A stretch of 64,000 nucleotides of DNA from positions 2,682 through 66,681 of the forward strand of contig PMYD01000025.1 of the NCBI GenBank assembly GCA_003171335.1, given 5' to 3'. This document shows positions 8,907 through 64,000 of the stretch, piece after piece (position 1 is the stretch's first letter; each line of letters begins with the position of its first letter). A program made the translations under genes and the position numbers. The DNA comes from Phycisphaerales bacterium (GTDB taxonomy: Bacteria > Planctomycetota > Phycisphaerae > SM23-33 > FEN-1343). The notes under the pieces were generated by a model. That model did not search any database. It was given only the letters and a program-made list of their open reading frames with translations, and had not been told where the DNA came from.

Positions 8907-8950
8907 TGAAGTTCTCTTTCTTTTCTTGGGTTAAACGGAATACCAGGGAA

Positions 8951-8995
8951 TTCTCGCAGAGGAATTGCAAATTGCAAATCGCAAATTGCAAATTT
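8951..8995. repeat. heptamer array (AATTGCA-type, 5+ units) about 50 bp upstream of the fba start
   Basis: GGAATTGCAAATTGCAAATCGCAAATTGCAAATTTAACGG, an AT-rich tandem-heptad tract in a GC-rich genome. Related arrays flank palindromic elements at 18430..18551 and 18993..19115. Confidence 0.7.
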
Positions 8996-9165
8996 AACGG
9001 CCGCACGCGGACGGGCAAGCCGCGTGCATAGGCTTGGGTGCCGTGGCTTGCGGAGCGCAGCGCAGCAACCACGACGACGGCGATGCAGAGCACGCGTGGT
9101 TGCTTCGGTCGCCGCAGCGACCTGTCCGCCATACTTCGGCGAATCCTGCGGAGAATGCCATCTGG

Positions 9166-18405: not shown

Positions 18406-18429
18406 GACAACCTCGGGCGTATTGCTGAA

Positions 18430-18551
18430 GGAATTGCGAATTGCAAATTGCAAATTGCAAATTGGGGAACTCCGAACCTCCCGCCGCTGTGGGCAGTGAG
18501 TGGCGATCCGGTGTCCCTGAATTGGCAATTTGCAATTCGCAATTGGCAATC
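18430..18551. repeat. palindromic element: (AATTGCA)n left arm and inverted (TGCAATT/TGGCAATT) right arm flanking an ~55 bp GC-rich core
   Basis: GGAATTGCGAATTGCAAATTGCAAATTGCAAATTGG ... GAATTGGCAATTTGCAATTCGCAATTGGCAATC. Sits immediately upstream of the HydS-HK start and downstream of the CheY gene stop. Confidence 0.8.
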
Positions 18552-18555
18552 TCTT

Positions 18556-18972
18556 CTAGCTGTCGTTTGGCGCGCAGGCCTTGTCGCCCAGCAGCCGGGC
18601 GACCTCCGCGCGGATCTGCTCAGCGCGGACGGGTTTATCGAGGATCAGGTCGGCCTTGACCCAGCTCTTGGCGTCTTCATCGTTGGGCACGAACGACAGG
18701 CCCGTGGCGGCGGCGACGGAGGTCAGCAGGATGACCGGCACATCCCCGTGCACGCGCTTGAGGTGGTAGGCCAGCACGAAGCCGCTGTCCATCTGCTCCA
18801 TCATCAGGTCCAGGATGGCCAGGTCGGGCTTTTGGCCTAAGAGCAGCTCCTCGCCCTGGCGCTGGCTGTGGCCGGCCTGCACCTCGTAGCCGTCGGCCTG
18901 GAGCACCAAGGTGAGTTGGGAAACGATGTCTTCGTCATCATCCACAATCAAGATTCTGGGCTTGCTGTTCAT
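18556..18972 (-). CDS. single-domain CheY-like response regulator (receiver only)
   Basis: Verified ATG (complement of 18970-18972): MNSKPRILIVDDDEDIV.. REC hallmarks ..DLAILDLMM.. and ..LLTSV... No output domain. Confidence 0.75.
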   Translation of the reverse strand: MNSKPRILIVDDDEDIVSQLTLVLQADGYEVQAGHSQRQGEELLLGQKPDLAILDLMMEQMDSGFVLAYHLKRVHGDVPVILLTSVAAATGLSFVPNDEDAKSWVKADLILDKPVRAEQIRAEVARLLGDKACAPNDS

Positions 18973-18992
18973 TTTCAAATGTCTCTCAGTTC

Positions 18993-19115
18993 GATTGCAA
19001 ATTGCCAATTGCAAATTGCCAATTAAAAACTCTTCCGCAGGAAGTGCCGCTTGATCGGCGCGGCGCCTCGCCGCAGCTCTTCAATTTGCAATTTGCAATT
19101 GGCAATTGGCAATCC
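18993..19115. repeat. palindromic element with (AATTGCA/AATTGCC) heptamer arms, related to 18430..18551
   Basis: GATTGCAAATTGCCAATTGCAAATTGCCAATT ... CAATTTGCAATTTGCAATTGGCAATTGGCAATCC. Fills the hydA-stop / CheY-start spacer. Confidence 0.8.
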
Positions 19116-20837: not shown

Positions 20838-20852
20838 GCCATATCCTCGTTA

Positions 20853-20975
20853 CCGTGGCACGGGCGTCTCGCCCGTGAGTCGCACGGGCATCTTGCCCGT
20901 GATCCGGCCGTTTCTTCTCAGTTTCCACGGGCGAGACGCCCGTGGCACTCATGGGCGGGACGCCCATGCTACTCT
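20853..20975. repeat. cluster of four CACGGGCG-NNNN-GCCCGTG family hairpins in the hydB-hydA intergenic spacer
   Basis: CACGGGCGTCTCGCCCGTG, CACGGGCATCTTGCCCGTG, CACGGGCGAGACGCCCGTGGCAC, CATGGGCGGGACGCCCATG, all read directly. A second cluster of the same family is at 38676..38795. Confidence 0.85.
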
Positions 20976-23900: not shown

Positions 23901-24259
23901 ATGCGCGTGCGGCCGGGCATCTGCACATCGAGCAGGGGCTCTTCCGAGCACAGGCCGATGCAGCCGACCTCGATCACCTCGGCATCGAGATTGCCCTTGG
24001 CGATGTACTCGCGCACGGCGGCGAGCGTTTTGCCCGCCCCAGCGCCCAGGCCGCACGTGCCGGTGCCGATGAAGATCACCGGCTTGGCCACATCCTGGCG
24101 GCGCAGGGCCGACAGCCGCCCGGCCAGCACATCGGCCCCCGCGCTCTTGGCGGCGGCCAGCGGGCCGGCGGGAATCCAGTCCAAGAGCTCGGGCGAGACC
24201 GGCCGAGCGCCCAGCCAGCAACGATCAAAAGCCACGGCAGCGGTATTAGCATCCGGCAT
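20975..24259 (-). CDS. hydB: hydrogenase NADH-dehydrogenase-like subunit HydB: NuoF (51 kDa, FMN/NAD-binding) fused to a C-terminal GltD-like FAD/NAD(P) oxidoreductase domain
   Basis: Verified ATG (complement of 24257-24259). NuoF hallmarks ..GGGGFPTGKKW.., ..LICNADEGDPGAF... Cys-rich Fe-S motifs. Then a GltD-like region: ..CQNACPAG.., ..KIAVIGAGPSGLTAA.., ..GRVGVIGGGNSAMD... Confidence 0.85.
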   Translation of the reverse strand: MPDANTAAVAFDRCWLGARPVSPELLDWIPAGPLAAAKSAGADVLAGRLSALRRQDVAKPVIFIGTGTCGLGAGAGKTLAAVREYIAKGNLDAEVIEVGCIGLCSEEPLLDVQMPGRTRICFGNATADKVEAVLKAVLVDAKVAEGAALGQFRQEGLLLKPWDQVRYLDEHPFLIRQRRVVLATSGLLDPGSIDEYIAWGGYSAVAKVLGKMTPEEVCDQVEASGLRGRGGGGFPTGKKWKFARASQANQKYLICNADEGDPGAFMDRAVGESDPHRLLEGMLIAAYAIGASKAYIYIRAEYPVAIRRLQQAMAQARQYRLIGENVLDSGFSLEIVIKQGAGAFVCGEETALIHSIEGRRGMPRPRPPYPAVKGLFGKPTVINNVETLANLPLILDIGPQWYAAMGTASSKGTKVFALSGMVRRTGLVEVPMGTTLRQVVFDIGGGIPNNKACKAVQIGGPSGGCVPEKELDIPTDYEALKKFGTIMGSGGLVVVDQATCMVDFAKFFMEFIQSESCGKCIPCREGTKRMLEILQALTRSPRQESPFDSLLRVQGIMHLERLGEMIKATSLCGLGQTAANPVLSTLKWFRAEYEAHVFERRCPAGACKSLVGAPCQNACPAGTEVWRYVAHIGRGEYEEAYRVIRQSNPFPSACARVCHHPCEHACRAGSTGGESVAVRTLKRFVVDHVSPGVGTPAVAPAAANAAKIAVIGAGPSGLTAANCLSLMGHRVTVFEREAKPGGMLVGAIPAYRLPRDLLRREIDALTNPNVEIRYNTALGRDFSLDDLLAQGFSAVYVATGAHKSKKLDLAGEDARGVIPSMTFLKAHNLHGQELAHGRVGVIGGGNSAMDAARVALRQKGVTSVTVLYRRTREEMPAYHEEVEAGLQEGVKLEELVAPLAVHTKDGKLTGLRLQRNKLGERDASGRQRPVPIAGSEFDLELDTLVVAISEEPETEGLEQLTLTRWGSVATNGESFQTSRTGIFAGGDAVTGPATVIAAVGTGKQAAAMIDRFVRGKAMRVLPKAIVPGVYVAPVAGGGDDEESETIVERVKCPELPVGQRKCTFAEVELCISEADAVKEARRCLRCDLEFTQPD

Positions 24260-36890: not shown

Positions 36891-38549
36891 CTATTGAGGC
36901 GGGCGGTCTGCCACGACATCCGTGAGCAGATAGCGGGGTTTGTACTGTTCCAGGCGCGGTCCGCGTCGAGCCAGGAATTCCTGCTCGGCCCGCGCAAAGA
37001 GGTCGCTGGGGGCCGAGCTGATGCGCAGCGGCCCCAGCCGGCCGGAAAAACGCTTGGCGGCGTACTCGACGTTTAACTTCTGCAGCGCCGAATCGACGGC
37101 CGCCGCCAGTTGCTCCAGGCGATCGCTCTGGAGCTGCACGGACAGGTGGTAATAGGGCAATTCGGCGAAGTGTCCTTGGGCGATGAAGTTCTGGATGGGC
37201 AGCCCGAGACTGGCGGCGGCGTGGGCGACAGCCTCGACGATCTGGTTCTCCGTCAGCTTTTCGCCGGTGATGCTGGCGGTATGGGCGCCTTTGGAGAGGA
37301 ACTCGATGAGGGGCGTTTCGCCCATCCAGCCGGTAACGCGGATGCGGTCCTGGATGTGGTATCGCCACAGGCCGGAAAAATTGGTGACCACGAGGAAATA
37401 CTCGCGCCCGGCCTCCAGCTCGTGAATGGGCAGGGCCATCGGCTCTTTGGCGGGCTCATGCTCGGCCGGGATGAACTCGAAAAGCGAGCTGGTGACCTCG
37501 GCCACGCCGGCCGCGGTGCCATCGACAAAAGGCACGCTGAATCGGCCCTCGCTGGCCAAGAGACCCACATCGCGGATGGGCACCCCGCCGGTGAGCTGGC
37601 GGACCTGCGGCAGGTACAGCCCCAGCGTGCCGCCGGTCCAGTGCATCAGCGAGGAGAGTCGCCAGAAATGGCCCGCGCGCAGGCGCCCATCGCGCGCCAG
37701 CCCCTGCTCAATGCGCTTGACCAGTTGGGCGTGGCGGCGAAGCGGCAGGCTTTTCACCAGCGCCGCCGGCACATCGCCGGGCGGGGTAAGCGTGCCATCG
37801 CGCAGATCGCGCAGCAGCCCCTCGATGTGGTGCTCGGCCGTCATCAGCAGCTTGATGATGGTAGAGGGGTTGGCCGTGGAGATGAGCGCCACATCGCGCG
37901 GCATGGCCAGGCGCATGAGCGTGTAGTACTTGGCCTGCGGGTCGGCGATGTTCGTGACGGCCGGCGGGGCGACGTACATGCGGCGGACGATCCGCTTTTG
38001 CACCTGGCCCAGCATGCCGGAAATCGCCCCGCAGGGGATGCCCGTGGGGCTGTAGCTTTCGACCGCCGGGCTGGAGACCTGGAGGATCGGCCGCAGCCAG
38101 GCGTCGGGGTGGTCGCAGAGCAGCTTGTAGCCGAAGACGTTCCAGCCGCGCCGGTAATCTTCCAGCGACTGGCGGGTGATGGGAATGCACTTGGGCTGGC
38201 CGGTCGTGCCGCTGGTGATGGCGAACATGAGGATGGCAGTCCCGCGCGGGAACATGGCCTCCGCATCGCCCTCGTACACGGCCTGGAGATACGGCCGCAA
38301 CTGCTCATAATCGCGGATGGGGACGGCGGCGCGAAAATCGTCGTAGCTGCGCACGGCCGCCAGGCCGTGGTCGCGGCCGAAGCGCGTGTGGGCGTGAGTC
38401 TCCACCAGCCGCCGCAGCAATCGCTCCTGCGTGGCTCGGCCATCGGTGGCGGCGTGGGTGAAATAGTTGTACTGCCCGGCCGCGTGCACGGCGGCCAGGC
38501 GGGCGGCGGGTCTCAGCAACCAACGCGTGATGCCCACGGTCAGATCCAA
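36891..38549 (-). CDS. GH3-family (acyl-acid amido synthetase / adenylating) protein
   Basis: GH3-type N-terminal region ..VPIRDYEQLRPYLQAVYEG.. and ..TSGTTGQPKCIPIT... ~550 aa. The track's start is TTG; a GTG four codons in is equally possible. Confidence 0.7.
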   Translation of the reverse strand: MDLTVGITRWLLRPAARLAAVHAAGQYNYFTHAATDGRATQERLLRRLVETHAHTRFGRDHGLAAVRSYDDFRAAVPIRDYEQLRPYLQAVYEGDAEAMFPRGTAILMFAITSGTTGQPKCIPITRQSLEDYRRGWNVFGYKLLCDHPDAWLRPILQVSSPAVESYSPTGIPCGAISGMLGQVQKRIVRRMYVAPPAVTNIADPQAKYYTLMRLAMPRDVALISTANPSTIIKLLMTAEHHIEGLLRDLRDGTLTPPGDVPAALVKSLPLRRHAQLVKRIEQGLARDGRLRAGHFWRLSSLMHWTGGTLGLYLPQVRQLTGGVPIRDVGLLASEGRFSVPFVDGTAAGVAEVTSSLFEFIPAEHEPAKEPMALPIHELEAGREYFLVVTNFSGLWRYHIQDRIRVTGWMGETPLIEFLSKGAHTASITGEKLTENQIVEAVAHAAASLGLPIQNFIAQGHFAELPYYHLSVQLQSDRLEQLAAAVDSALQKLNVEYAAKRFSGRLGPLRISSAPSDLFARAEQEFLARRGPRLEQYKPRYLLTDVVADRPPQ

Positions 38550-52129: not shown

Positions 52130-52330
52130 AACGACCTTGCTGAGTCTATCTTATTAGCGCGATCACCTTGCACGCAAGCCTCCCGACCGCTGGCCGCCTG
52201 CAATGCGCGCCTGGCGGACATGCCGGCGGGCAAGCTTTACGAGCGTTGCCGCTTCAAGCATCGCCTGCCGCCGGCGGGTATGATTAGCCTGAGCGCGGCA
52301 AGCTGTCGCCGACGCGGAGGTGGGGTATTC

Positions 52331-53759
52331 CATGCGCGTACTGATCGTCAGTTCTAACCGCATCCGCCAGCCGGTGATGGTGCTTCCCTCGGGCGCCTGC
52401 CTGGTCGCTGAGGCGGCCGAGCGGGCCGGGCACGCCGTGCGGCTGCTGGACCTGATGTTTGAAAAGTGGCCGCACGAGGCGCTCCGCCGCGCGCTGGTCG
52501 ACTGGCGGCCGGCGGTCGTGGGCCTGTCCATCCGCAACATCGACACGAACGATGCTCGCAACCCCGTCGTCCTGGCCGATGAGGCGGCCGAGCTGGCTCA
52601 GGTTGTTCGCCGGTGCAGCGATGCCAAACTTGTTCTGGGGGGTGCGGCTCTGGGCGTCATGCCGCACGAACTTTTGCGCCGGACAGGGGCCGACTATGCG
52701 GTCGTCTTCGACGGCGATGTGGTCTTCCCCCAGTTGCTCGATTCACTCGCCGCCGGCCGCGAGATCCGCGGCTTGGCGGGCGTTCTGGCGCCCGGCGATG
52801 TGGCGCTGCCGGCGCGGCCGGCCGGCGGGGGGGAGCTGGCAAGCTGCACGCCGCAGGAACTGTCGCGCTGGGTCCAGGTGCGCCCTTACCTCTCGAATAT
52901 GGCTGCCGTGGGGCTGCAAACCAAGCGCGGCTGCCCGTTCGAGTGCATCTACTGCACGTACAGCATGGCCGAAGGCCACGAATATCGGCTCTGCCCGCCC
53001 GAGCAGGTGGTCGCGGCTGTGCGGCGGCTGGCCGCGCAGGGGCTGCGCGATGTGGAGTTCGTCGACAACGTTTTCAACTCGCCGTACGAGCACGCCCTGG
53101 CGATCTGCCGCCAGCTCGCCGTCGCCCGGCTTGGCGTGCGGCTGCAAAGCCTCGAGCTGAACCCGCGATTTCTCGATGATGAACTTCTTTGGGCCATGGA
53201 GCAGGCGGGTTTTGCCGGCATCGGCGTAACGGCCGAGAGCGCCAGCGATGTCGTTTTGGCGGGGCTGAAGAAGGGCTACACCGCCGAGCAACTTCGCCTA
53301 GCCGCCGGCGCGGTGGCCCGCCACGCCATTTCTTGCGTGTGGATCTTCATGCTGGGGGGCCCCGGCGAAACGCCCGACACCGTGCAGGAGACGCTGGAAT
53401 TCGCCACGCGCTGCATACGCCCCAGCGATACCGCCTTCTTCCAGACCGGCATTCGCATCTATCCCGGCACGCCGCTGGAGCAGATCGCCCGCGCCCAGGG
53501 CGTGTTGACCGCCGCCGGCGACGACATGCTCGCGCCGGTGTTCTACATCAGCCCGCAGATGTCGCTAAGTGGCCTGAAAGCCCAGGTGAATGCCGCCGTC
53601 CGCACCCACATGAATTTCGTCGCCGTCGATGCCATCGGCCTGCCGCTGTTCCAGACGGTGCTTCGGGCGTGCTATCGCCTGGGTGTCCGCCCGCCCGTGT
53701 GGCGCTACACTCCCGGCGTGCGGCGGCTGCTGAAGTGGACGGGGCTCTACGGCGGCTAG
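52331..53759 (+). CDS. B12-binding-domain radical SAM protein (class B rSAM)
   Basis: N-terminal Rossmann-like B12-binding region (MRVLIVSSNRIRQPVMVLPSGACLVAEAAERAGHAVRLLDL..). Radical SAM motif CPFECIYCTY. ATG 52331 has a GGAGGTG SD; the track's 52320 is GTG. Confidence 0.75.
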
Positions 53760-53932
53760 CCGATGGGAATGCGCGGTGACTTGATTCCTGGCGCGACTTC
53801 GGGAATTGCCCGTGGTGTAAGTGTTACAGTCTGTCCGCGGCGGACACCTGAATTTCTATCGCCACAGGTGGCCCCCATTGCGGTCCGGTCTGTCTTGCCG
53901 ATCGACCGATTAACGGATTAACCTCTTCCCAG

Positions 53933-55075
53933 ATGGCCGCCGCAACTGGATACAATAAGAACGCAGTACCAGGAGAAGCCCCCGTGGGGACAATCATTCG
54001 ATCGCTGGCAACGGCGAATCCGGCTCGCTACGTCACTGGCCGTGAGGCCTACGATTTCCTCACCGGGCATTTTGCCCTGGGGGCGCCGCAGCGCGACCTG
54101 TACCGCCGGCTGCTCATCGATGGGCCCATCCGGGGACGTTACATGGGCCTGGAGTACGATGAGCAGGTATGCCTCATGTCCGCCGATGAGCAGCTCGATC
54201 GCTTCCAGAAGCAGGCGCTGGCCATGGCCACGAGGGCGGCGGCCGAGGCGCTGGCGGCGGCCAAACTCCAGCCGGCCGATGTGGGCGGCCTGGTCGTCAA
54301 CACCTGCACGGGCTACCTGTGCCCGGGGCTCTCCTCTTATGTGGCCGAGGCGCTGGGCCTGGCCGAGTCGGTCCGCGTGCTGGATGTGATGGGCATGGGC
54401 TGCGGCGGGGCGCTGCCTAACCTCCAGTCGGCCTGCGGCCTGCTGGCGACGGGGGAAACGAACGGGCGCTCGCGGCCGGTGCTGTCGATCGCCGTGGAAG
54501 TGTGCTCGGCCACGATTTACATGGGCGATGATCCGGGCCTGATCGTCAGCAACTGCCTTTTCGGCGATGGCGCCGCCGCCGCCGTGCTTTCGTTGAATGG
54601 ACACGCACAGGAAGAGTCGCCGCCGGCCGGCGGCCCGCGGGCGCCAAAACTGCTCGATTTCGAGTCGCAAGTCCTGCCCGCGCACCGGGAATCGCTGCGC
54701 TATCACCACGAGCAGGGCCGGCTGCGCAACACGCTGAGCATCCGCGTGCCGGTCATCGCCGGCCGGGCCATCCGCCAGTTGACCGGGAGGCTGCTGGCAC
54801 GCCACGGCCTGTCCATTGGCGATATCAACTGGTGGGCCATCCACCCCGGCGGCACCGCCGTGCTGGAGCAGGCGGCCAAGGAGTTGGCGCTGCCGAGCGA
54901 TGCCCTGCGCTATTCGTACGAGGTTTTCGCCGAGTACGGCAACATGTCCTCGCCTTCGGTCCTGTTCGTCCTGAAGCGCCTGCTGGAGCGCGCGCAGCCG
55001 CCCAAAGGCCAGAAAGGCCTGTTGCTGTCGTTCGGGGCCGGATTCACCGCGTTTGGTGCGTTGGTGGAGTTCTAG
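53933..55075 (+). CDS. type III polyketide synthase (chalcone/stilbene synthase family)
   Basis: Catalytic Cys in ..VMGMGCGGALPNLQ... His in ..WWAIHPGGTAVL... Asn in ..FAEYGNMSSPSVLFVL... Thiolase-fold size (380 aa). Confidence 0.8.
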   Translation: MAAATGYNKNAVPGEAPVGTIIRSLATANPARYVTGREAYDFLTGHFALGAPQRDLYRRLLIDGPIRGRYMGLEYDEQVCLMSADEQLDRFQKQALAMATRAAAEALAAAKLQPADVGGLVVNTCTGYLCPGLSSYVAEALGLAESVRVLDVMGMGCGGALPNLQSACGLLATGETNGRSRPVLSIAVEVCSATIYMGDDPGLIVSNCLFGDGAAAAVLSLNGHAQEESPPAGGPRAPKLLDFESQVLPAHRESLRYHHEQGRLRNTLSIRVPVIAGRAIRQLTGRLLARHGLSIGDINWWAIHPGGTAVLEQAAKELALPSDALRYSYEVFAEYGNMSSPSVLFVLKRLLERAQPPKGQKGLLLSFGAGFTAFGALVEF

Positions 55076-55369
55076 AGCACCGAACGATTGAGATGTCATA
55101 TTCAGGCGTCGGCGAGACCAGGATGGCAAGGAAGAAAACCGAAGGCATATTCCTAATATGCTGAGGTTTTTCTGACGCCGCCAGCCGCCGTCGCAGCCAG
55201 CCTGAATGTGACAGATCAAGAGTGAGTTGCTCTAGAGCGGGTTACCGACTCCTGCGATCGAGCCTGCATCGGCGCGATTGACGAGCGGACCGCGGTAGGA
55301 TTTATTGCATAGCGATACTCGTTCAATGGCACGGGTGGCGTTCCTGGACCTCATTTAGGAGTGGCAGAC

Positions 55370-55783
55370 ATGGGATTCGTGCAGGAATTCAAGGCGTTCG
55401 CCATGAAGGGCAACGTCATCGACATGGCCGTGGGCATCGTCATTGGCGTGGCGTTCAACAAGATCGTCACCTCGTTGGTCAATGATGTGATCATGCCGCC
55501 CATCGGCTATCTCATCAGCGGCGTGCCTTTCAAGAACCTGGAGGTGGTCATCAAGCCTGCCGTCCTCAAACCGGGCACTCAAGAGGTGCTTCACGAGGCG
55601 GTGGCGGTTCATTACGGGCTGTTCATCAACACCGTACTGGAGTTCCTCATCGTCGCCTTCACGGTCTTCATGGTAGTGAAGTTCGTGAACCGGCTGACGC
55701 GCCTTCGCGAGATGATCAGCCCGCCCGAGCCCCAGGCCGGGCCAGGTCCTTCGTCCGCGCCGACGCCGCCGGCGGCGCCGTGA
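55370..55783 (+). CDS. mscL: large-conductance mechanosensitive channel MscL
   Basis: [46 protein letters not shown].. is the canonical MscL TM1/TM2 pattern. AGGAG SD 9 nt upstream of ATG 55370. Confidence 0.8.
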
Positions 55784-55788
55784 GGAAT

Positions 55789-56679
55789 CTAGATTATCTC
55801 CAGATGCTCCTTCGCCGGCAGCGCCGGGAAGGGAGCGGTGGGCAAGGTCTGGTACCAGTAGGCGACCGAGGCAATATCGTCCTGGCGCGCGAGGTAGGGC
55901 CCGCCGCCACGCCAGCCCAGGTCCTGGATTGTCACGCGCAGGTCGTTCTCGAAGCGGATAGGGTCCATAATGTGCCAGCGGTACATGGCATGGCGGTGCT
56001 GGGCCTTGTACAACCCGTCGGGCCGGCTGACCAGATGCATGCCTAAGAAAGGCGTGGTGTAGGTCGTGTAGCGGCCGTCGACATCCCAGTTATAGGCGCC
56101 GCCGAAATAGTCTTCCGTGCCGGTCCCGCAGATCGTGGGAAACTCCTTGTCGCCGTCGATGTAGAACTTGATCTCACCCTCGCCCCACCAGCCGTTCTGG
56201 GTCACGCCCACCGCCATGGCCGTTCCGACATAATGCCCCTGGCCGCGGATGCCGTCCACAAGGGTGTGCGCCTGCTGATTCGGCACGGGGTTGGACCGGC
56301 GGAACTGGGCGTGGAAGTACGCCAGGTCGCTGCCGACATCGGTGAGCGCGTAGTTGATCTGGTAAAAACAGACGATTGCCTCGCTGTGGCGGTTTTCAAG
56401 CGTAATGCGGCAGCGCTTGCGGAAGGGCATCTCCCACACTATCAGTACCGACGCTTCGGACAGCTCCAAGGCAGCGGCTCATTCTAACATCATAACATCG
56501 CTGTGATTGCCGTGAGAGTTGTGCAAGGCGCTCTGATAGGCTTGCACCGCCGTGAAAAAGAAAGATAATCCCGTTGGAGAGGTGCTGGGTGACGCTTGTG
56601 GGAAATTGCCAGGCGGGCACCGGCTGAATGGAGATGACGCACATGGAAGAATCCTCGATAGGCGTGCCGAGTCTCTCAT
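55789..56679 (-). pseudogene. DUF2961-family protein, apparently 5'-truncated or frameshifted
   Basis: Minus ORF 55789..56469 holds the C-terminal two-thirds of a DUF2961-like protein (..ICGTGTEDYFGGAYNWD..). Protein-like sequence continues upstream in another frame (56479..56679: ..TAVQAYQSALHNSHGNHSDVMM) with no start or signal peptide. It collides with the HDC-like gene start on the opposite strand. Confidence 0.3.
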
Positions 56680-57809
56680 TGGGCGATCGGCAAAAGCTGG
56701 ATGATCTCTATCAGCGGCTGGAATCCGAGCGACAACGGTTCATCGGATACCCCTGCTCCGCCGAATTCGATTATTCGCCGCTGTACCGGTTTCTGGGCTT
56801 TCCGATCAACAACATCGGGGACCCGTTTGTGCCCAGCAATTATCACCTCAACACACACGAGTTCGAGTGCGAGGTGTTGGAGTTCTTCCGAGGCCTATGC
56901 CACGCGCCGCCGGATGGTTTCTGGGGCTATGTTACCCACGGCGGCACGGAGGGGAACATGTATGGGATTTACCTGGGGCGTGAGATGCTGCCCGACGGGA
57001 TGGTGTATTACTCGGAGGACACCCACTACTCGGTCAGCAAGATCCTTCGCCTCTTGCACGTCCGCAATTTGATGATCAAGAGTCTTCCCGATGGAAGAAT
57101 GGACCTGGAGGATTTTCGAGAAACGCTGAAGATTCATCGCGACGTGCCGCCGATCATTTTCGCCAACATCGGCACGACGATGAAGGGTGCGGCGGACGAC
57201 CTGGAAGGCATCCGGGCGATTCTCGCCGACCTGGCCATCGCCCGCCACTATATCCACGTGGATGCAGCGCTGAGCGGCATGATTTTACCCTTTGTGGAAG
57301 CCCCGGAGCCGTTTGATTTCTCCTGCGGTGCCGACAGCCTTTCCATCAGCGGGCACAAGATGATCGGCTGCCCCTTCCCCTGCGGCGTGGTGCTGGCCAG
57401 GAAGGCCAACGTGGACCGAACCGCCCGGAACATCGAGTACATCGGCACGCTGGACACCACGCTGGCCGGCTCGCGCAACGGCGACTCGGCCCTGTTTCTG
57501 TGGTATGCGATCCGCGCGCTGGGTCTGGAGGGATGGCGTCGGCGGGTCCGGCAATGTCTGACGGTGGCCGAGTACGCCGTGAAGCGCCTGCGGGATGAGG
57601 CGGCAGTCCAAGCGTGGCGGCACAGGAACTCGATTACCGTCGTCTTCCCTCGCCCTTCGATGGACATCATCAGTCGCTGGCAACTGGCTGTCCACCATCA
57701 ATGGTCCCACCTGATCACGGTGCCCCACGTCACCCAGGAGGTTGTGGATCGGTTCGTTGCCGATCTCCGCGCCGACGTTGGCAACGGTTCAGCAGGAAGC
57801 CCAACATGA
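56628..57809 (+). CDS. PLP-dependent group II decarboxylase, histidine-decarboxylase-like
   Basis: PLP-Lys motif ..SISGHKMIGCPFPCGVV... ..THGGTEGNMYGI... Size ~390 aa. Three in-frame ATGs at 56628, 56634 and 56643; the last has a GGAG SD. Confidence 0.6.
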   Translation: MEMTHMEESSIGVPSLSLGDRQKLDDLYQRLESERQRFIGYPCSAEFDYSPLYRFLGFPINNIGDPFVPSNYHLNTHEFECEVLEFFRGLCHAPPDGFWGYVTHGGTEGNMYGIYLGREMLPDGMVYYSEDTHYSVSKILRLLHVRNLMIKSLPDGRMDLEDFRETLKIHRDVPPIIFANIGTTMKGAADDLEGIRAILADLAIARHYIHVDAALSGMILPFVEAPEPFDFSCGADSLSISGHKMIGCPFPCGVVLARKANVDRTARNIEYIGTLDTTLAGSRNGDSALFLWYAIRALGLEGWRRRVRQCLTVAEYAVKRLRDEAAVQAWRHRNSITVVFPRPSMDIISRWQLAVHHQWSHLITVPHVTQEVVDRFVADLRADVGNGSAGSPT

Positions 57810-58198
57810 AACAGATCACAATCGTCACTCAGGATCGGCCCGGACTGGTTGCGGACATCTCGGAGGTCCTGACGGCCGCGGGCGTCAATATCGAGTCTCT
57901 GGTGGCCGAACAGGTGGGGGCCTTGGCCACGGTTATCATGACCGTGGATAATTACGACTCAGCGCTGCGTGCCATTTCGAAGATGCCGTTGAGCGCCGTC
58001 ACCGAAGATGCGATCCTCGTCAGAATAGACGATCGCCCCGGGGCATTGGCCGGCATCGCCCGCCGCTTCAAAGATGCCGGCGTGAACATGCGCTCGATCC
58101 GGATCCTTTGCCGGGATGGCGGCCGAGCCATCGTCGCCATCTCCACCGATCGGACCGCCGAAGCCCTGGCGCTCGTCCGGGATGTGCTAATCTCTTAA
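57806..58198 (+). CDS. ACT-domain protein (tandem ACT)
   Basis: MKQITIVTQDRPGLVADISEVLTAAGVNIESL.., then a second ..ILVRIDDRPGALAGIARRFKDAGVNMRSI... Its start ATGA overlaps the decarboxylase stop. Confidence 0.55.
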   Translation: MKQITIVTQDRPGLVADISEVLTAAGVNIESLVAEQVGALATVIMTVDNYDSALRAISKMPLSAVTEDAILVRIDDRPGALAGIARRFKDAGVNMRSIRILCRDGGRAIVAISTDRTAEALALVRDVLIS

Positions 58199-58292
58199 CA
58201 GTTATCGCGGCGTTACACCGGCCCGACGTGCGGGTGATTCGACTCATCCATTTGCTACTGCGCTTCTTCCCCCCCAATGCCTGCGGCTTCGT

Positions 58293-59474
58293 TCACCGGC
58301 TGCCCAGATCCAGCGCCCTTTGGCGATAGTAGCGGTAGTTTGCCAGCGTGACCTCGGCGGGCACTCCGTGATCGCACGTGGGCGTGTATCCGCCGCGGGC
58401 ACGCATCACGGGGAGGATGCGATCGAGCATTTCATCGATGGCCTTGGGGCCCCGGGCGAGCACGCGCTTATCGATGCCGCCGGACATGACGAGGTATGGA
58501 AACTGTCGCCCGATCTCGACGACGTCGCACCCGCTGGCGACCTCGAAGGGGCTCATCACGTCCAGGCCGATCGCCCGGTGATAGAGATCGATGACGGGCA
58601 CGCAGAAGCCGTCGGTGTCCACCTGGACGTAGAGGTGCCGCGATGGGTCGAGCTGGCGGGCGCGGATGCCCTTCAACAGCTCCTGGTAGTACGGGAAGAA
58701 GAATTCGGCAAAGATGCTTGGGCTGACCAGGGAGCCGTGGTTATAGCAGATATCTTCAGCGAAGAAGACCTCATCCAGCGTGACCTGCTGCTGGTGGCGG
58801 GCGGTGACGGCCTGCGCCAGCTTCAACCAGGCGCGCATGGCATCGTGAATGACATCGGGCATGTCGTAGAAGGCCAGCATCATGTTCTCGACGCCCAGCA
58901 TGGCCCGCAGGTACATGCCGGCCCCGGCGATGCGCTGGACGATGAGCTTGCCTTGCCGGGGGGCGGCGGTGGCCACGGCCATGTACTGCGGCAGCTTGTC
59001 GAACCGCCCGGGGGCCTCCGGGTCCAGCCGCCAAAGGCACTGTTCTTCCCAGGTCTTGCGGTCTTTAAGCACATGATCCACGTATTCAGGCATGAAGCCG
59101 CTGCGCCGGCCAGCAAAGCACTTGACGTGCCGGCCAGCGAAATCCTGGACGATTTCGTAAGGGCCCTGGACCTCCAGGACCTTCTCTTCAAAGAAGGGCC
59201 AGTATCCCGGCTCGCACCAGCCCAGGCCGCCGAGGTTCACGGTGGCAGGCTCGTCGAAGCAGAACTCGCGGGGCAGGTCGGCCTGGGCGTCCAGGCCCTG
59301 CTTGCGCCATTCATCCAGGCAGAAGTACCCGAACTCCTTTTGGAAGAGCGGGGCTCCCGGCGTCATGGCATAAACATCGCGCAGCTTACGGGCCGACGGA
59401 TGCATCTGCTCGCGGGGGACCATGGCGTGAATGCCGTCGGCTACAGTTGTGTCCGGCTTGTTCAAAGGGGACAT
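58293..59474 (-). CDS. uroporphyrinogen-decarboxylase (URO-D/MtaA/CmuA)-like family protein
   Basis: TIM-barrel URO-D-like length and C-terminal ..GGYTPTCDHGVPAEV.. region. Start MSPLNKPD.. at the complement of 59472-59474 (weak SD); upstream in-frame residues are possible. Confidence 0.5.
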   Translation of the reverse strand: MSPLNKPDTTVADGIHAMVPREQMHPSARKLRDVYAMTPGAPLFQKEFGYFCLDEWRKQGLDAQADLPREFCFDEPATVNLGGLGWCEPGYWPFFEEKVLEVQGPYEIVQDFAGRHVKCFAGRRSGFMPEYVDHVLKDRKTWEEQCLWRLDPEAPGRFDKLPQYMAVATAAPRQGKLIVQRIAGAGMYLRAMLGVENMMLAFYDMPDVIHDAMRAWLKLAQAVTARHQQQVTLDEVFFAEDICYNHGSLVSPSIFAEFFFPYYQELLKGIRARQLDPSRHLYVQVDTDGFCVPVIDLYHRAIGLDVMSPFEVASGCDVVEIGRQFPYLVMSGGIDKRVLARGPKAIDEMLDRILPVMRARGGYTPTCDHGVPAEVTLANYRYYRQRALDLGSR

Positions 59475-59698
59475 TATCGGAGATTTCCAATACGAGGTTC
59501 TACCGACGACCATCGCCAGCAATATGGCAATTTTACGAAGCCGTGGCGTCTCGACAAGCGAATTTGCGGCGCCGCCAGTCGCTGCGGAGGGTACTGGCCA
59601 TGACCGAATTCTCGATGCCGTTGGGAATCACCGGAGACAGCGCTAGTATTTCAATGATTGCTGCGGGCTGGACCGGGATATTTATAAGGAGTCCAAGT

Positions 59699-59821
59699 AT
59701 GGAACAGCCTCAAAGACAAGCGTATGTGTCCCCCACATTGGAAAAGCAGCAGCTACTCCAGGAAGTGACCGAGGCCTGTAAGACCACCGCGGCCGCGGTC
59801 TCGGCCGCAGTCATCAGCTAA
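59699..59821 (+). CDS. candidate RiPP precursor peptide (40 aa) ending in Ser
   Basis: MEQPQRQAYVSPTLEKQQLLQEVTEACKTTAAAVSAAVIS. Strong AAGGAG SD 7 nt upstream. Its TAA stop overlaps the ATG of the HPr-kinase-like gene (TAATG). An in-frame upstream ATG (59600) would give 73 aa. Confidence 0.35.
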   Translation: MEQPQRQAYVSPTLEKQQLLQEVTEACKTTAAAVSAAVIS

Positions 59822-60846
59822 TGGCCTGGGGGTGTGGCAACCAGCTCAGACGGTACGACGTGCATGGGTTAATTCTGCACGTCGTGCCGGACGAGCCTGC
59901 CCTGCTGGAACCTGTCGATCGCGTCCTGCGGCCATTCATCACGGAAACACAGTTCGACGAACCCGATACTTTTGTGTTGCGCCTCTCGCGCCGGACGGCG
60001 CGGCAGGAGGTTGCTGCGGTTCTGCCGTGCATCTGGAGCGGCCAGATGCCCGGCGGTTGTCCGGGCCGGTATCTGGCCGCCGGCTTAAGACGACAGATTG
60101 AGTTGACGGATCGCGCCATCGCCAGTGTGGACCTGGCCAGCCGGCAAGCTCGCATTGTGCTGCTTACCGACGATGACCGGTGGATCACCTTCGGCTGCCT
60201 TACGCCACTGCTGACGGAAATGCTGCACAGCCGCGGCTGGCATGTCGTGCACGCCGCCTGCCTGCGCCTTGGCAGAGAACCTGGCGGCCCGGTCGTTTTG
60301 CTGTGCGGCTCCAGCGGCATGGGCAAAACCACCACCGCCCTGGCCCTCTCTCGCGGACAGATGCGCCTGCTGGCCGATGACGCCGTCTTTGCCCGAATCG
60401 ACAGCAACGGCGCGTGGGTCTGGGGACTGGGTCGGCCCTGCAAGGTGCATCCGCACACGCGCCTGTTGCTTGGCTGGCTGGCCGAACTACCGTCAGAGCC
60501 GGCGGTGAATGCGGAGGAAGGCGTTATGGCTTTCTCCCTTCTCGGCGATCCGACTCCCCGTGTCGCCCATCCGGCCGTGGTCCTGGTCCTGGAGCCGCGC
60601 AATGCCGTGGCGCACCATCTGCGACCCCTGCACAAGAACGAGGCGCTGGTGCACCTGGTGCGAGAGAACGTTCGCTGGTTGAAGGGGTCGGCGGCCTTTG
60701 CGGCGATGGCCGGCATCGTGCGAGCCTGCGGCTGCTACGGCCTGAGCGTCGGCCCTGATCTGAATGTCCTGCACCAGGCAATTCTATCTCTGCCGGAACT
60801 GAACCATGCGCTCGCGCATCAATCGATGGCTGGTGGCCTTGTGTGA
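59821..60846 (+). CDS. HPr-kinase/phosphorylase-related serine kinase (peptide-modification-associated)
   Basis: P-loop ..LLCGSSGMGKTTTALAL.. in an HprK C-terminal-domain-like context. No N-terminal HprK domain. Confidence 0.6.
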   Translation: MAWGCGNQLRRYDVHGLILHVVPDEPALLEPVDRVLRPFITETQFDEPDTFVLRLSRRTARQEVAAVLPCIWSGQMPGGCPGRYLAAGLRRQIELTDRAIASVDLASRQARIVLLTDDDRWITFGCLTPLLTEMLHSRGWHVVHAACLRLGREPGGPVVLLCGSSGMGKTTTALALSRGQMRLLADDAVFARIDSNGAWVWGLGRPCKVHPHTRLLLGWLAELPSEPAVNAEEGVMAFSLLGDPTPRVAHPAVVLVLEPRNAVAHHLRPLHKNEALVHLVRENVRWLKGSAAFAAMAGIVRACGCYGLSVGPDLNVLHQAILSLPELNHALAHQSMAGGLV

Positions 60847-61837
60847 CCCGCAGGGCCTGGCGGACTTGCCTGCTGGCCGCATGCCCCTGTCCGATGTCGT
60901 TCCGCTGATGGCGCGGGCCGAGCAGCAAGGCGTCGGGCCGGTGGTCCTGGCCAACCTGGAACGCTGGGCGCAAACGCAGTCGATTCACCGGAAACAGTGC
61001 GCCTCGGCGGCTCCGTTGGCGGCGCTGCTGGCGGCCTCTCGCCCGCGGATCCTGCATCAGGCCGGCCTGGCGCTGATGCTGCGCGCTGCCAGCGGCGCCC
61101 TGGTGAGGGCCTTGGCCGCAGCGCGCGTGCCGGCCACGGTGCTCAAAGGCACGGATTTTGCCGATCGGCTCTACCCGGTGGCAGCGCTGCGGCCACAGCG
61201 CGATGTCGATCTGCTGGTGCCGCGCGATGCCTTGGCGACCGCCGAGGCCGTGCTGGGCGGTCTCGGTTACGCCGCCGTGCCCGATCCGCCGAGGAAGTAC
61301 AAAGATGGCTACGGCCAGCGCATCTGGCGCCGCGACGACGCGGGCGCGGTCGTGGAACTGCATTGGAACCTGGTGAATTCCCCTGCCGTGCGCCGCGGCA
61401 TCAGCGTGCTGTACGAGGACCTCACCTTCGAGCCGGCCGTCATGCCCGGCAGCCTGCCGCGCCTGACGGCGGCATCGTGCGTGCTCCTGGCGGCCGTGCA
61501 CGGCGCCACCAGCCATAGTTTCGAACGGCTCCAACTGCTGTGCGACATCCGGCAGTTGGCTCGCGGAGCCGCCGGACCGATCGATACGGCCTGGCTGGCG
61601 GATGCGGCTTCTCGCACCGGCAGCCTGTCGGCGCTGGGCGTGGCGCTGCGATTGACGGCGCAGACGCTGCGCTGCCCGTCGTGCTCGGTGCTCTGCCAGT
61701 CGCTCGGTCCGCGGCTGCCATCGCGGTGGAGCTGGGTCCTGACTCCGGCGGTCGTGCTGGGCGAAGCGCCTTTGGGCGCGGTCCGGCGGCAACTGTTTCG
61801 TCACCTGCAGAAGAATCCCCCATGCTCGTCCTTGTGA
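60806..61837 (+). CDS. nucleotidyltransferase-family protein of the type found beside PqqD/lasso-like clusters
   Basis: ..LKGTDFADRLYPVAALRPQRDVDLLVPRDA.. resembles the hG[GS]..D.D signature of minimal nucleotidyltransferase-fold proteins. Overlaps the kinase 3' end by ~40 nt. Confidence 0.5.
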   Translation: MRSRINRWLVALCDPQGLADLPAGRMPLSDVVPLMARAEQQGVGPVVLANLERWAQTQSIHRKQCASAAPLAALLAASRPRILHQAGLALMLRAASGALVRALAAARVPATVLKGTDFADRLYPVAALRPQRDVDLLVPRDALATAEAVLGGLGYAAVPDPPRKYKDGYGQRIWRRDDAGAVVELHWNLVNSPAVRRGISVLYEDLTFEPAVMPGSLPRLTAASCVLLAAVHGATSHSFERLQLLCDIRQLARGAAGPIDTAWLADAASRTGSLSALGVALRLTAQTLRCPSCSVLCQSLGPRLPSRWSWVLTPAVVLGEAPLGAVRRQLFRHLQKNPPCSSL

Positions 61838-61931
61838 TTTGTACGCGTTGCTGGGCACGCTGGCCTTGTCGCGGCCAGGTGGCAGTCTTGTTCGCAGCAC
61901 AGAAAGAACGATCTTGCGCGGAGCTCGCACC

Positions 61932-62219
61932 ATGATCACCTTGGAAAGCGTTCTGGAACTTCCTCCCGCCACCGCCTGCCAATCGCTGGGCGTGGGGCAG
62001 GACAGCGTCATCCTCTCGATGGACAGCGGCTACCTGTATACCGGCAACCAGACCACCCACGCATTCTTGAACGCCCTGGATGGCCGCCGCACGCTGGGCC
62101 AGGTGGCCGATGTGCTGGCGGGACAGTTCGACGTGCGGCTGGAACGCCTGCAGGCGGATCTGCTGGCCTTGGCCGGCCGGCTGCTCGACGAGCGGCTGAT
62201 CGTCGTGGTGAAGAACTGA
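61932..62219 (+). CDS. PqqD-family RiPP recognition element (B1-like) protein
   Basis: MITLESVLELPPATACQSLGVGQDSVILSMDSGYLYTGNQTTHAFLNALDGRRTLGQVADVLAGQFDV...LQADLLALAGRLLDERLIVV matches the PqqD-family pattern (..Y.LN.T...IW.LLDG.RTL.EI...L...F..). An alternative TTG start is at 61839. Confidence 0.65.
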   Translation: MITLESVLELPPATACQSLGVGQDSVILSMDSGYLYTGNQTTHAFLNALDGRRTLGQVADVLAGQFDVRLERLQADLLALAGRLLDERLIVVVKN

Positions 62220-62629
62220 TGGCCGTGCGAACGGCGGTCTTGCGATGCCACATCTGGCTGGTGGCCAGCTTGATACCCCTGCTGGACCGTCTGCTGTCGT
62301 TGGCAGGTTTGCTGCGGCTGCTGACTCCCCATCGGCCGTGGAAGCTTTACCGCGGCCTTGGAAGCCAGCCTGTGGTGCAGGCGGTGCGCCGCCGGCTGGG
62401 CAGGCCCACGCACATGCGCCGCCGGGCGTGCCTGCGCCTGGGCATCACGCTGTACCACTTCCTGCGGTTGGCCGGCCTGCCTGCCCAACTGCGGTTTGGC
62501 GTGTACCCGCCACAAACGCAGGGAGGCCGTCGGATGCACGGCCACTGCTGGGTCTTGCTCAATGGTCGTTGCCTGGCCGACCCGCCCGACGAGCCGGTGG
62601 TCCAGGTACTTGTTTGGCCGGCCTCATAG
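62219..62629 (+). CDS. lasso-peptide B2-like (transglutaminase-core) cysteine protease homologue
   Basis: Start overlaps the PqqD-gene stop. ..RRACLRLGITLYHFLRLAGLPAQLRFGV...RMHGHCWVLLNGRCLADP.. matches the Cys...His-Cys-Trp-Val...Asp-Pro pattern of leader-peptidase B2 proteins. Confidence 0.5.
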   Translation: MAVRTAVLRCHIWLVASLIPLLDRLLSLAGLLRLLTPHRPWKLYRGLGSQPVVQAVRRRLGRPTHMRRRACLRLGITLYHFLRLAGLPAQLRFGVYPPQTQGGRRMHGHCWVLLNGRCLADPPDEPVVQVLVWPAS

Positions 62630-62882
62630 TGGGCAGGCCTTCCCCATCCTCAAATACAAATGCGGGTTTTTGAAAGGAATAGCGGGCGCCAGTCGCAGTT
62701 CAAACAGATCGCTCAACTGCAGGAATTGTCGTGATCAACATGCAGCACGCCGATTTCCTTTGGCGTTGCATTCCTGATGCCCAGTACGAGAGGAGAAACT
62801 ACGGCGGTCCTATCACGACACGGTCTACATCGCCTATTACATCAAGTATGCCGACGACTTCGCCGAGGGCGGATCGGGCGGC

Positions 62883-63644
62883 ATGCATGGTTGCAACATC
62901 GCCATCAACAACCAGAACGGCAAGCCCGACGCCTTTGGCCTGGCCACCGCCGGCCACACGGCCGATGGTACAAATTTCGCCAGCGCCTGGGCCGAGACGG
63001 AAAACAACTGGGCGACGACCACGCCTCCCGGGCACGTGGTTGCCTGCTGGCGGCTGGCCAACATGCAGGCCAACCATTACTGGACGGGAAAGGTTCCAGC
63101 GCGCGGCATCTGGCATTATGTCGTCAATCGCGTGGGCCTCAATGATGTGGGGAAGGACAACGGCTACCTGGACATCTGGTACGACGGCGAATTGCTGGGG
63201 CATTTTACGGGCCAGCATAACACCCCGCCCCTGCAGGGACTCCGCATGCGAACGACCCCGGACCTCGTGATTCGTGCCTTCTATCCGGGCATCTACGTGC
63301 ACCACAATTCCCAGAAGAACACCGTCTGGATCGACGACATCAGCATCGTGGCGGAGTCGCCGTCCCTCTGTACAGCGCCCACGGACCTGAAGGCCGAGCG
63401 GTCCGCCGACAGCATCGCCCTGACGTGGACGGCGAGCGAAGGCGCGACCGGGTACAACGTCTATCGCTCCGACTCGCGCAAGCAGGGCGTGAGCACGCCT
63501 TTTATCCGGCTCACCGAGCGTCCCGTGGCACAACCCTCCTGCGTCGACAAGAGTGCGGCCCAGGGCAAACCCTATTACTATCTCGTCACCGCCGTAAGTG
63601 CGCACGGCGAATCCACCTTTTCACAGGAGGCCACCGCGCCGTAG
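62883..63644 (+). CDS. secreted-type domain protein (glycan-lyase-like N-part, C-terminal FN3 domain), probably N-terminally truncated or frameshifted
   Basis: C-terminal FN3 (..PTDLKAERSADSIALTWTASEGATGYNVYRS...KPYYYLVTAVSAHGES..). In-frame protein-like sequence (..SYHDTVYIAYYIKYADDFAEGGSGG..) runs upstream of the first ATG to a stop with no start. A different-frame ORF (62731..) begins MINMQHADFLWRCIPDAQYERRNYGG. Confidence 0.3.
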   Translation: MHGCNIAINNQNGKPDAFGLATAGHTADGTNFASAWAETENNWATTTPPGHVVACWRLANMQANHYWTGKVPARGIWHYVVNRVGLNDVGKDNGYLDIWYDGELLGHFTGQHNTPPLQGLRMRTTPDLVIRAFYPGIYVHHNSQKNTVWIDDISIVAESPSLCTAPTDLKAERSADSIALTWTASEGATGYNVYRSDSRKQGVSTPFIRLTERPVAQPSCVDKSAAQGKPYYYLVTAVSAHGESTFSQEATAP

Positions 63645-63743
63645 ATCGTCTGCGAACACTGCTAGCACTCTGCCCGGCTCAAATTGGCGGGTATTGTCGT
63701 TTCCGTTTGATCCGCCCGGAACCCGCCGGCGGCTTCGCGTGCA

Positions 63744-64000
63744 TCATCCATGCTCCCGCGCGGCATCGTAAGCGGCGATCACGTTCTCCGGCGGCACGTT
63801 GGCCTGGAGATTGTGCACGGGTGTGAAGATGTAGCCGCCGCCGCGCGAGAAGACATCGATGTTCCGACAGGCCACATCGCGGACCTCCGCGGCGCTGGCT
63901 CTATCCAAGATGCCCTGGGTGCTCACGCCTCCGCCCCAGAACGCGATGTCCCGCCCGAACTCTCGCTTCAGGCGCTCCGGAGACATGCCGGCGGCCGTGA
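63744..64000 (-). CDS. second URO-D/MtaA-like family protein, C-terminal end only (5' part beyond window end)
   Basis: ..DIAFWGGGVSTQGILDRASAAEVRDVACRNIDVFSRGGGYIFTPVHNLQANVPPENVIAAYDAAREHG is a typical URO-D/MtaA C-terminus. Confidence 0.5.
   Translation of the reverse strand, partial: TAAGMSPERLKREFGRDIAFWGGGVSTQGILDRASAAEVRDVACRNIDVFSRGGGYIFTPVHNLQANVPPENVIAAYDAAREHG

Follow-up and report, generated by a model that had tools for sequence, protein, structure and literature searches.

In a 64,000-nucleotide stretch of DNA from a Phycisphaerales bacterium (contig PMYD01000025.1; hereafter the window, with positions counted from its first letter), we find that a 40-codon open reading frame (ORF) on the forward strand (59699-59821, stop codon included) is a genuine, conserved precursor-peptide gene. 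Its product, MEQPQRQAYVSPTLEKQQLLQEVTEACKTTAAAVSAAVIS, divides into a predicted leader and a predicted core, MEQPQRQAYVSPTLEKQQLLQEVTE|ACKTTAAAVSAAVIS. Judging from its sequence and from the genes that accompany it, the ORF probably encodes the A peptide of a cyclase-less, lasso-derived pathway for a ribosomally made, post-translationally modified peptide (RiPP), whose product would be linear, cleaved from its leader, phosphorylated or polyphosphorylated on Ser, and maybe further extended by a nucleotidyltransferase (NTase).

A conserved precursor gene coupled to a kinase gene

The stop codon of the precursor ORF (TAA, 59819-59821) shares its last A with the start codon, at 59821, of a gene for an HprK-like P-loop kinase, giving the overlap TAATG, and reading of the sequence places a Shine-Dalgarno (SD) element, AAGGAG (59686-59691, forward strand), 7 nucleotides (nt) 5' of the precursor ATG. 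An original prediction made from this DNA had described the ORF, its strong ribosome-binding site and its TAATG coupling to the kinase gene, and direct reading showed that description to be accurate. Both arrangements recur in the two closest loci that we recovered, namely L041, whose kinase is 65% identical and which carries two peptide copies (MEQSGKQAYEAPTLEKEQLLQEVTEGSGAVVIS and MEQSQKQAYEAPTLEKQQLLQEVTEGDVIIVS), and L039, whose kinase is 54% identical and whose peptide reads ...KKPYVEPELVKQQQLQEVTEMDPNVPPVGAAS; in each of them, SD sequences precede the homologous peptide genes and the 1-nt stop/start overlap between peptide and kinase (TAATG or TGATG) is retained.

To place the ORF in a family, we drew on kinase homologues, 37 of which were found in a protein collection clustered at 90% and 318 representatives of which were found at E<=1e-30 in a 50%-identity library, with loci taken via a kinase alignment (A1; 38 genome and 49 metagenome loci) and supplemented by contigs for individual homologues. 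Small ORFs with a common N-terminal motif lie beside the kinase gene in locus after locus. A hidden Markov model (HMM) of the leader, comprising 23 positions and trained on 16 peptides from other loci with the window peptide left out, finds about 100 such ORFs in related loci, 81-82 of them distinct. Run against 20,249 six-frame fragments, the same model recovered the precursor ORF with E=1e-8 as its sole significant match in the window, and again as its sole match in L094, a sequence from the same genome that is 100% identical to window positions 52219-64000 and extends 10 kb further. A word-based protein search with the 40-amino-acid (aa) peptide gave no matches, and the homologues were recovered only by reading the DNA beside kinase homologues and by the custom leader HMM.

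Spurious ORFs are common in GC-rich genomes, and dozens of ORFs overlap this region on both strands, so a chance ORF in the intergenic DNA 5' of the kinase gene had to be considered. The conservation data refute it, and we give it a negligible probability: over the 25 leader codons, comparison with the two L041 copies yields 9 synonymous against 6 non-synonymous differences in one case and 8 against 4 in the other, with 12 of 21 and 11 of 15 nucleotide differences falling at third codon positions, and this synonymous bias stands alongside the HMM score, the conserved SD and stop/start overlap, and the occurrence of about 80 homologous peptides at this genomic position. Conservation of a small ORF beside the same kinase/PqqD set was the test that the original prediction had named for itself, and such an ORF is indeed present in many genomes. 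A promoter and terminator scan of positions 59000-63000 returned signals at shuffle level and was uninformative, and Rfam searches of positions 58000-64000 on both strands returned no matches at E<=1.

The start codon also needed scrutiny, as the precursor ORF sits within a longer open frame whose in-frame ATG at 59600 would yield a 73-aa protein with the supposed leader as its middle portion. That start is adopted by the public gene call, which annotates a 73-aa hypothetical protein at 59600-59821 (L094 7382-7603), so that automatic annotation hides the 40-aa precursor. We nevertheless consider a 73-aa product very unlikely. The AAGGAG element is placed for the ATG at 59699, and the 33 additional residues are not matched in relatives: in several (L041a, L003/L043, L065 and L042), a stop codon stands 1-5 codons 5' of the homologous Met, indicating that the family peptides start at that Met. 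The N-termini MEQPQRQAY (window) and MEQSGKQAY and MEQSQKQAY (L041) likewise align starting at Met. An upstream start with a folded N-terminus, which the original prediction had named as grounds for its own refutation, was thus not what we observed, the upstream extension not being conserved.

Leader, core and candidate modified residues

The predicted leader spans 25 residues (59699-59773), with a YxxPxL motif for binding by a RiPP recognition element (RRE) at 59723-59740 and a Thr at 59768-59770. If cleavage occurs after Glu25, then Tyr9, Pro12, Leu14 and Thr24 fall at positions -17, -14, -12 and -2, and the window peptide has the register of lasso leaders, in which YxxPxL occupies -17 to -12 and Thr stands at -2 (PMC10368454); the motif has also been given as [Y/W]xxPx[L/V/I..] (PMC13381572). 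In an alignment of 81 relatives, the conserved block ends in ...E-V-T-x|G, with Gly at core position 1 in 45 of the 81. Taken together, the lasso register and the end of the relatives' conserved block lead to the predicted core ACKTTAAAVSAAVIS and make VTE|ACK the most likely leader/core boundary, rather than KTT|AAA. The original prediction had proposed a RiPP precursor consisting of a leader at the N-terminus and a short core at the C-terminus, with its translation coupled to that of an HprK-like kinase, which our analysis supports, but it had drawn the boundary at KTT|AAAV, where a Thr also stands at -2 but which is out of register with YxxPxL and with all relatives.

The core so defined comprises 15 residues (59774-59818), none of which is Asp or Glu, and offers as candidate modification sites Ser10 (59801-59803), Ser15 (59816-59818) and Thr4/Thr5 (59783-59788). 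Cores across the family range from 7 to 27 aa, with six only 7 residues long, and Asp or Glu occurs at core positions 7-9 in only 15 of 81. What most of them share is a [V/I/L/A]-[S/T] element, found after position 3 in 67 of the 81 cores, with the Ser or Thr at positions 5-7 in 51 of those 67. The most frequent position for this residue is core position 7 (29 cores), where the frequency of Ser/Thr is 0.41 compared with 0.18 overall. The conserved element, at core positions 5-10, forms the C-terminus of some peptides and lies inside others: 27 of the 81 cores end in Ser or Thr (e.g., GITDRVS, GTPSRVS, GDVIIVS and GYGSPAPVST), and in the remaining cores Gly, Asp or Gln comes after the Ser or Thr and then a short tail (e.g., GRAVVVSGVAPQV, QELPVTGVRT and GAPLPISQIPV). 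The window core contains the pattern twice, as Val-Ser at position 10 and as Ile-Ser at the C-terminus (position 15).

Which of these residues would be modified is a question on which the evidence divides. The original prediction had pointed to the C-terminal Ser, on the premise that HprK-type kinases of lasso clusters phosphorylate that position. The premise agrees with the literature on paeninodin and pseudomycoidin, as PadeK, the Sphingobium kinases and PsmK all phosphorylate a C-terminal Ser, often several times (PMC8498205, PMC6993621). Its extension to the present core is plausible within the window's clade, where all four peptides (window, both L041 copies and L039) end in Ser (VIS, VIS, IVS and AAS), a pattern that favours Ser15, but it does not carry over to the family at large, given that only the 27 cores noted above end in Ser or Thr. 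The family motif and the distance from the leader instead favour Ser10 (compare KTTAAAVS in the window with TTVSG in L042). Related kinases also act on internal residues, with BsfK acting on core Ser3, accepting Thr too and being stimulated by the RRE (PMC10368454), and LppK likewise acting on core Ser3 (PMC13381572), so that the modified residue could be Ser15, Ser10 or, less likely, Thr4/Thr5. We regard Ser15 and Ser10 as about equal candidates, with Thr4/Thr5 a minor third option.

Operon, gene family and the missing cyclase

Four genes follow the precursor on the same strand, overlapping or nearly touching one another. The first (59821-60846), whose start overlaps the peptide stop, encodes the 341-aa HprK-like P-loop kinase. 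Its matches to HPr-kinase models all fall below threshold (PF07475, 23.2 bits with a cutoff of 33.3; TIGR04352, 30.5 bits; TIGR04355, 21.1 bits), and with curated cutoffs of 200 bits it is not a member of TIGR04352 (HprK_rel_A) or TIGR04355. The closest PDB sequence matches to the A1 profile are HPr kinase/phosphorylases (HPrK/P), and an AF2 model (pLDDT 90.5) has phosphoenolpyruvate (PEP) carboxykinases as its top Foldseek matches, a PEPCK-like fold; the P-loop kinase fold of HPrK/P is structurally related to that of PEPCK. Alignment A1 shows no variation at G168, K169, D186 or D187 and almost none at G166 and T170, and the protein thereby carries both the P-loop G-x-G-K-[ST] and the D-D metal site of the HPrK/P superfamily. 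These residues match the BsfK motif G166-G168-K169-S170-D186-D187 even in numbering (PMC10368454), and D186/D187 match the metal site D158/D159 of PsmK (PMC6993621). As the HprK model matches are weak and limited to the P-loop region, it is from these conserved motifs that we infer a peptide kinase.

The second gene (60806-61837) encodes a 343-aa NTase of the NTP_transf_5 family (PF14907, E=1.9e-33), the kind to which PsmN, BsfN and LppN belong. Its G115 and its DxD residues D133 and D135 are invariant in 19 homologues, and the corresponding pair in PsmN, D134/D136, is required for hexose addition onto the phosphate in pseudomycoidin (PMC6993621); a single-sequence AlphaFold model of the window protein reached a pLDDT of 43. 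The third gene encodes a PqqD-type RRE (longest ORF 61839-62219; PF05402, E=3e-10, plus weak matches to lasso PqqD models), which the public gene call on L094 starts at 61932 to give 95 aa. A PDB sequence search with this protein returned weak PqqD matches and no lasso B1 or LppB match. The fourth (62219-62629) encodes a 136-aa lasso-type B2 transglutaminase-like cysteine protease (NF033537 lasso_biosyn_B2, 41.2 bits with a cutoff of 33; PF13471), in which Cys71 and His109 do not vary across 23 homologues and which is the predicted leader peptidase. The window therefore carries the RRE (B1/PqqD) and B2 protease pair of lasso clusters.

Using tblastn with the four window proteins, we found the quartet of PqqD, B2, kinase and NTP_transf_5 genes together in about 45 loci. 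They come from Planctomycetota, Verrucomicrobiota, deltaproteobacterial metagenome-assembled genomes (MAGs), Mesorhizobium and other Rhizobiales, and metagenomes, and have one to about ten leader-bearing small ORFs beside the kinase gene. The usual order is PqqD-B2-peptide(s)-kinase-NTase, compared with peptide-kinase-NTase-PqqD-B2 in the window; L042 shares the window order, except that a radical S-adenosylmethionine (SAM) gene is inserted between NTase and PqqD. Arrays of precursor genes are frequent; in two loci (L005:4000-5960, equivalent to L055, and L013:7040-8990 on the reverse strand), one from a Planctomycetota MAG and one from a Rhizobiaceae MAG, about ten such genes stand in tandem, their leaders near-identical and their cores hypervariable. 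A different arrangement is seen in L044 (9537-10993; kinase 39% identical), where the B2 and kinase genes overlap and no peptide ORF separates them; the leader HMM detects no precursor in the 11.4 kb of the locus, in which the only unexplained small gene is an 88-aa ORF 5' of the PqqD gene (8777-9043).

In about 15 related loci (L001, L002, L003/L043, L007, L012, L042, L046, L047, L053, L054, L056, L057, L059, L065 and L066), the cluster has a fifth gene, for a B12-binding radical SAM enzyme; these orthologues share about 50% identity and are encoded directly 3' of the NTP_transf_5 gene (e.g., L003:7911-9368). This enzyme occurs with both C-terminal-Ser and internal-Ser cores and is absent from the window's clade. 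A correlation between C-terminal Ser/Thr cores and absence of the radical SAM gene was considered and rejected, as L001, L047 and L059 have both. L042 additionally encodes two more peptides of the same leader type (15545-15858) with longer cores that end in GGCF (...TTVSGAVLLKGGCFKEERTE and ...TTVSGQLVTPKGGCFEKEDDSARG), adjoining a radical SAM/SPASM gene (L042:14393-15418, reverse strand), which suggests a second modification route on the same leader.

We next consider the macrolactam cyclase that a lasso pathway would need. Together, the window and the 10 kb added by L094 cover about 74 kb of the genome. No cyclase of the Asn_synthase type (PF00733) was found when the large ORFs of the 64 kb window were examined, and none appears in the L094 gene table for the 10 kb beyond it. 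Among related loci, L039, L042 and L043 showed none within +/-10 kb of the kinase gene, and L044 showed none on a contig that stops about 440 bp past that gene. In a wider set of 72 ORFs (>=380 aa) from 25 related loci, a cyclase did not occur in two or more ORFs among the 25 commonest of 77 matched families, a result that leaves room for a single occurrence; the additional families that recurred there were B12-binding radical SAM (9-11 ORFs), AMP-binding (5) and ABC transporters (4). The loci intended as a positive control for cyclase detection (L020-L038, from Streptomyces and others, with a kinase P-loop match only) turned out not to be lasso clusters, so the absence of a cyclase rests on the Pfam tables and on core composition.

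These results bear directly on whether the ORF could be a genuine lasso precursor with its cyclase encoded elsewhere in the genome, in keeping with the original framing of the locus as a kinase-containing lasso cluster. The B1 (PqqD) and B2 genes, the YxxPxL...T(-2) leader, and the kinase and NTase are all typical of the pade, psm and bsf clusters. However, two hallmarks of lasso clusters, the cyclase and a core Asp or Glu at position 7, 8 or 9, are both missing from the window. Since ACKTTAAAVSAAVIS has no Asp or Glu, a macrolactam cannot form; six family cores have only 7 residues, and no PF00733-type gene was found in the examined ORFs of the 64 kb and 10 kb or in the related loci. We therefore set the lasso framing aside as extremely unlikely, close to refuted by core composition.

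In the pathway that we propose instead, the 40-aa peptide is translated from the ATG at 59699 in coupling with the kinase gene, as the conserved SD and stop/start overlap indicate. The PqqD-type RRE would bind the leader via Tyr(-17)/Pro(-14)/Leu(-12), whose motif register is exact, and would present the peptide to the kinase, by which a core Ser would be phosphorylated, possibly repeatedly, in the manner of PadeK, PsmK, BsfK and LppK. The NTP_transf_5 enzyme may extend the phosphate, for instance with a hexose as PsmN does, this addition being speculative. Cleavage by the B2 protease after Thr(-2)-Glu(-1), as the motif and the homology to B2 suggest, would free ACKTTAAAVSAAVIS, and with no cyclase found and no acidic core residue, no macrolactam ring would form, leaving a short linear phosphopeptide.

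Several observations count against this proposal. The kinase matches HprK models weakly and in the P-loop region (23 bits with a cutoff of 33); neither the window nor L094 has an exporter gene beside the cluster, unlike most lasso clusters and the linear polyphosphorylated peptide (LPP) clusters of Bacillota; and an unlinked cyclase is formally possible given the roughly 74 kb of genome covered, although the core could not use one. The Ser residues of the window core, at positions 10 and 15, lie outside the family mode of 5-7 and leave the modified residue ambiguous. As for the NTase, LppN was inactive in a heterologous host (PMC13381572) and the chemistry of PsmN is undefined (PMC6993621).

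Phosphorylation might also be an activation step within the same pathway, leading to dehydroalanine or dehydrobutyrine by elimination, or to a cross-link or conjugate by displacement, and completed by the NTase and possibly by unlinked enzymes. The family's conserved [V/I]-[S/T], centred on position 7, and its frequent Gly at position 1 coincide with the ring-forming positions of lasso peptides, the B12-binding radical SAM orthologues in about 15 related loci imply family chemistry that exceeds phosphorylation, and the window core contains a Cys. That Cys is not conserved in the family, however, the quartet has no lyase, cyclase or other candidate enzyme as a conserved companion, and the characterized homologous kinases yield stable phosphate or polyphosphate products, so we judge an activation step unlikely. 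A further and quite improbable possibility is that these loci form a distinct, undescribed RiPP class of Gram-negative phyla, in which peptides of 7-15 aa would be made by cyclase-less lasso machinery and the phosphorylated or nucleotidylated Ser, instead of being the end product, would serve as an activated handle for a new head-to-side-chain linkage or for conjugation with a second molecule. A linear (poly)phosphorylated peptide remains our preferred reading.

Other genes of the window were noted as well. The RiPP operon is flanked by URO-D-family genes on the reverse strand, one upstream (58293-59522) and one downstream (63744-64000; full gene L094:11526-12725), and a polysaccharide-lyase/fn3 protein is also encoded downstream; the URO-D genes are not conserved beside the quartet in relatives. 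A B12-binding radical SAM gene (52320-53759) is followed by a type III polyketide synthase (PKS) gene (53933-55075). We considered this radical SAM gene as a fifth component of the cluster and rejected it, as it adjoins the PKS gene and its product is only 25-29% identical to the cluster-linked orthologues, for which reason the pair (52320-55075) probably represents a separate small-molecule pathway. Between the PKS region and the RiPP operon lie genes for a pyridoxal-dependent decarboxylase (56628-57809) and an ACT-domain protein (longest ORF 57614-58198; 130 aa in the L094 call). Further away, an [FeFe]-hydrogenase region on the reverse strand (16399-24259) encodes a HydA-type hydrogenase (19116-20837), a fusion of NuoF-like and pyridine-nucleotide oxidoreductase parts (20975-24259), and a protein (16399-18549) in which HisKA/HATPase histidine-kinase domains are linked to a large-subunit domain of Fe-hydrogenase and which would be a hydrogenase-like sensor kinase; these genes suggest that the host is an anaerobe. 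Aspartase homologues, at 74-77% identity to proteins of named MAGs, point to a Phycisphaerae-like member of Planctomycetota as the host. At 36891-38549 (reverse strand) lies a gene for a GH3-family (acyl-acid amido synthetase-like) protein that contains all three GH3 domains; this family appears to be uncommon in bacteria.

Comparison with known kinase-containing peptide systems

We compared the cluster with three kinds of known system. The cassettes of HprK-related kinases A and B (TIGR04352 and TIGR04355) also feature an HprK-like P-loop kinase, but the window kinase scores far below the cutoffs of both models. Those kinases are encoded beside PqqD-like proteins, and to our knowledge the cassettes have no assigned function. 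Our literature search, made in an incomplete library, found no description of the present architecture, whether sought in Planctomycetota or through PF14907 or TIGR04352.

The phosphorylated lasso systems comprise paeninodin, pseudomycoidin and the Sphingobium type, in which the C-terminal Ser is modified, and the bsf system of Bradymonas, in which Ser3 is modified. They share with the window a split B1/B2 pair, an HprK-like kinase with G-x-G-K-[ST]...D-D, an NTP_transf_5 enzyme (PsmN, BsfN) and Tyr(-17)/Pro(-14)/Leu(-12)/Thr(-2) in the leader, and the C-terminal Ser of the window's clade resembles that of PadeA and PsmA. The bsf cluster has both K and N genes, like the window, and the lasso kinase acts on the linear precursor, aided by the RRE (PMC10368454). 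Where they differ is that the lasso systems include a cyclase (C), in most cases an ABC exporter (D), and Asp or Glu at core positions 7-9, all three of which are lacking in the window.

The nearest described parallel is provided by the LPPs (Popov et al., Nat Commun 2026, PMC13381572), whose clusters combine kinase, RRE and NTP-transferase with no cyclase and for which the observed product is a linear peptide polyphosphorylated at core Ser3. Both systems pair an HprK-like kinase with a discrete RRE and an NTP transferase but no macrolactam cyclase; the precursors of both contain the leader motif Y-x-x-P, with a Thr placed 15 residues beyond the Tyr; and each system has from one to three or more precursor genes, in which the leader is conserved and the core varies. 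The differences are nonetheless substantial. The LPP peptidase is a SipW-type signal peptidase I (LppS) that cuts directly after the Thr and through which the LPP family is defined, whereas the Pfam lists of L094, L039, L042 and L043 include no signal-peptidase family, and the only peptidase of the present cluster is the lasso B2 protein. LPP clusters include an MsbA-like pump, in contrast to the window and L094, where no ABC exporter is adjacent. With the LPP leader consensus YxxPxVLxHQxIxFETxxS, only Y..P.[LV] and the Thr at +15 match here. LPPs have long cores, of 45 aa in the characterized case, that are phosphorylated at Ser3, with precursors of 35-200 aa, compared with cores of 7-27 aa and Ser/Thr at positions 5-10 in the present family. 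Finally, LPPs are described as restricted to Bacillota, whereas the present family occurs in Planctomycetota, Verrucomicrobiota and Proteobacteria.

Clusters of this kind are missed or mis-annotated by mining rules that demand a cyclase, or by gene callers that extend or skip ORFs of 30-45 codons. The roughly 80 natural substrates of the family, whose cores are very short and have a Ser/Thr conserved in position, offer a resource for studying how an RRE-guided kinase chooses its site (C-terminal or internal), and the same set can be used to learn what NTP_transf_5 enzymes add. Kinase-modified linear RiPPs were first reported in 2026, as Bacillota-only and signal-peptidase-dependent (PMC13381572); on our reading, the window and its approximately 45 related loci would constitute a second, widely spread lineage, in which the lasso B1/B2 proteins have been kept and the cyclase dropped.

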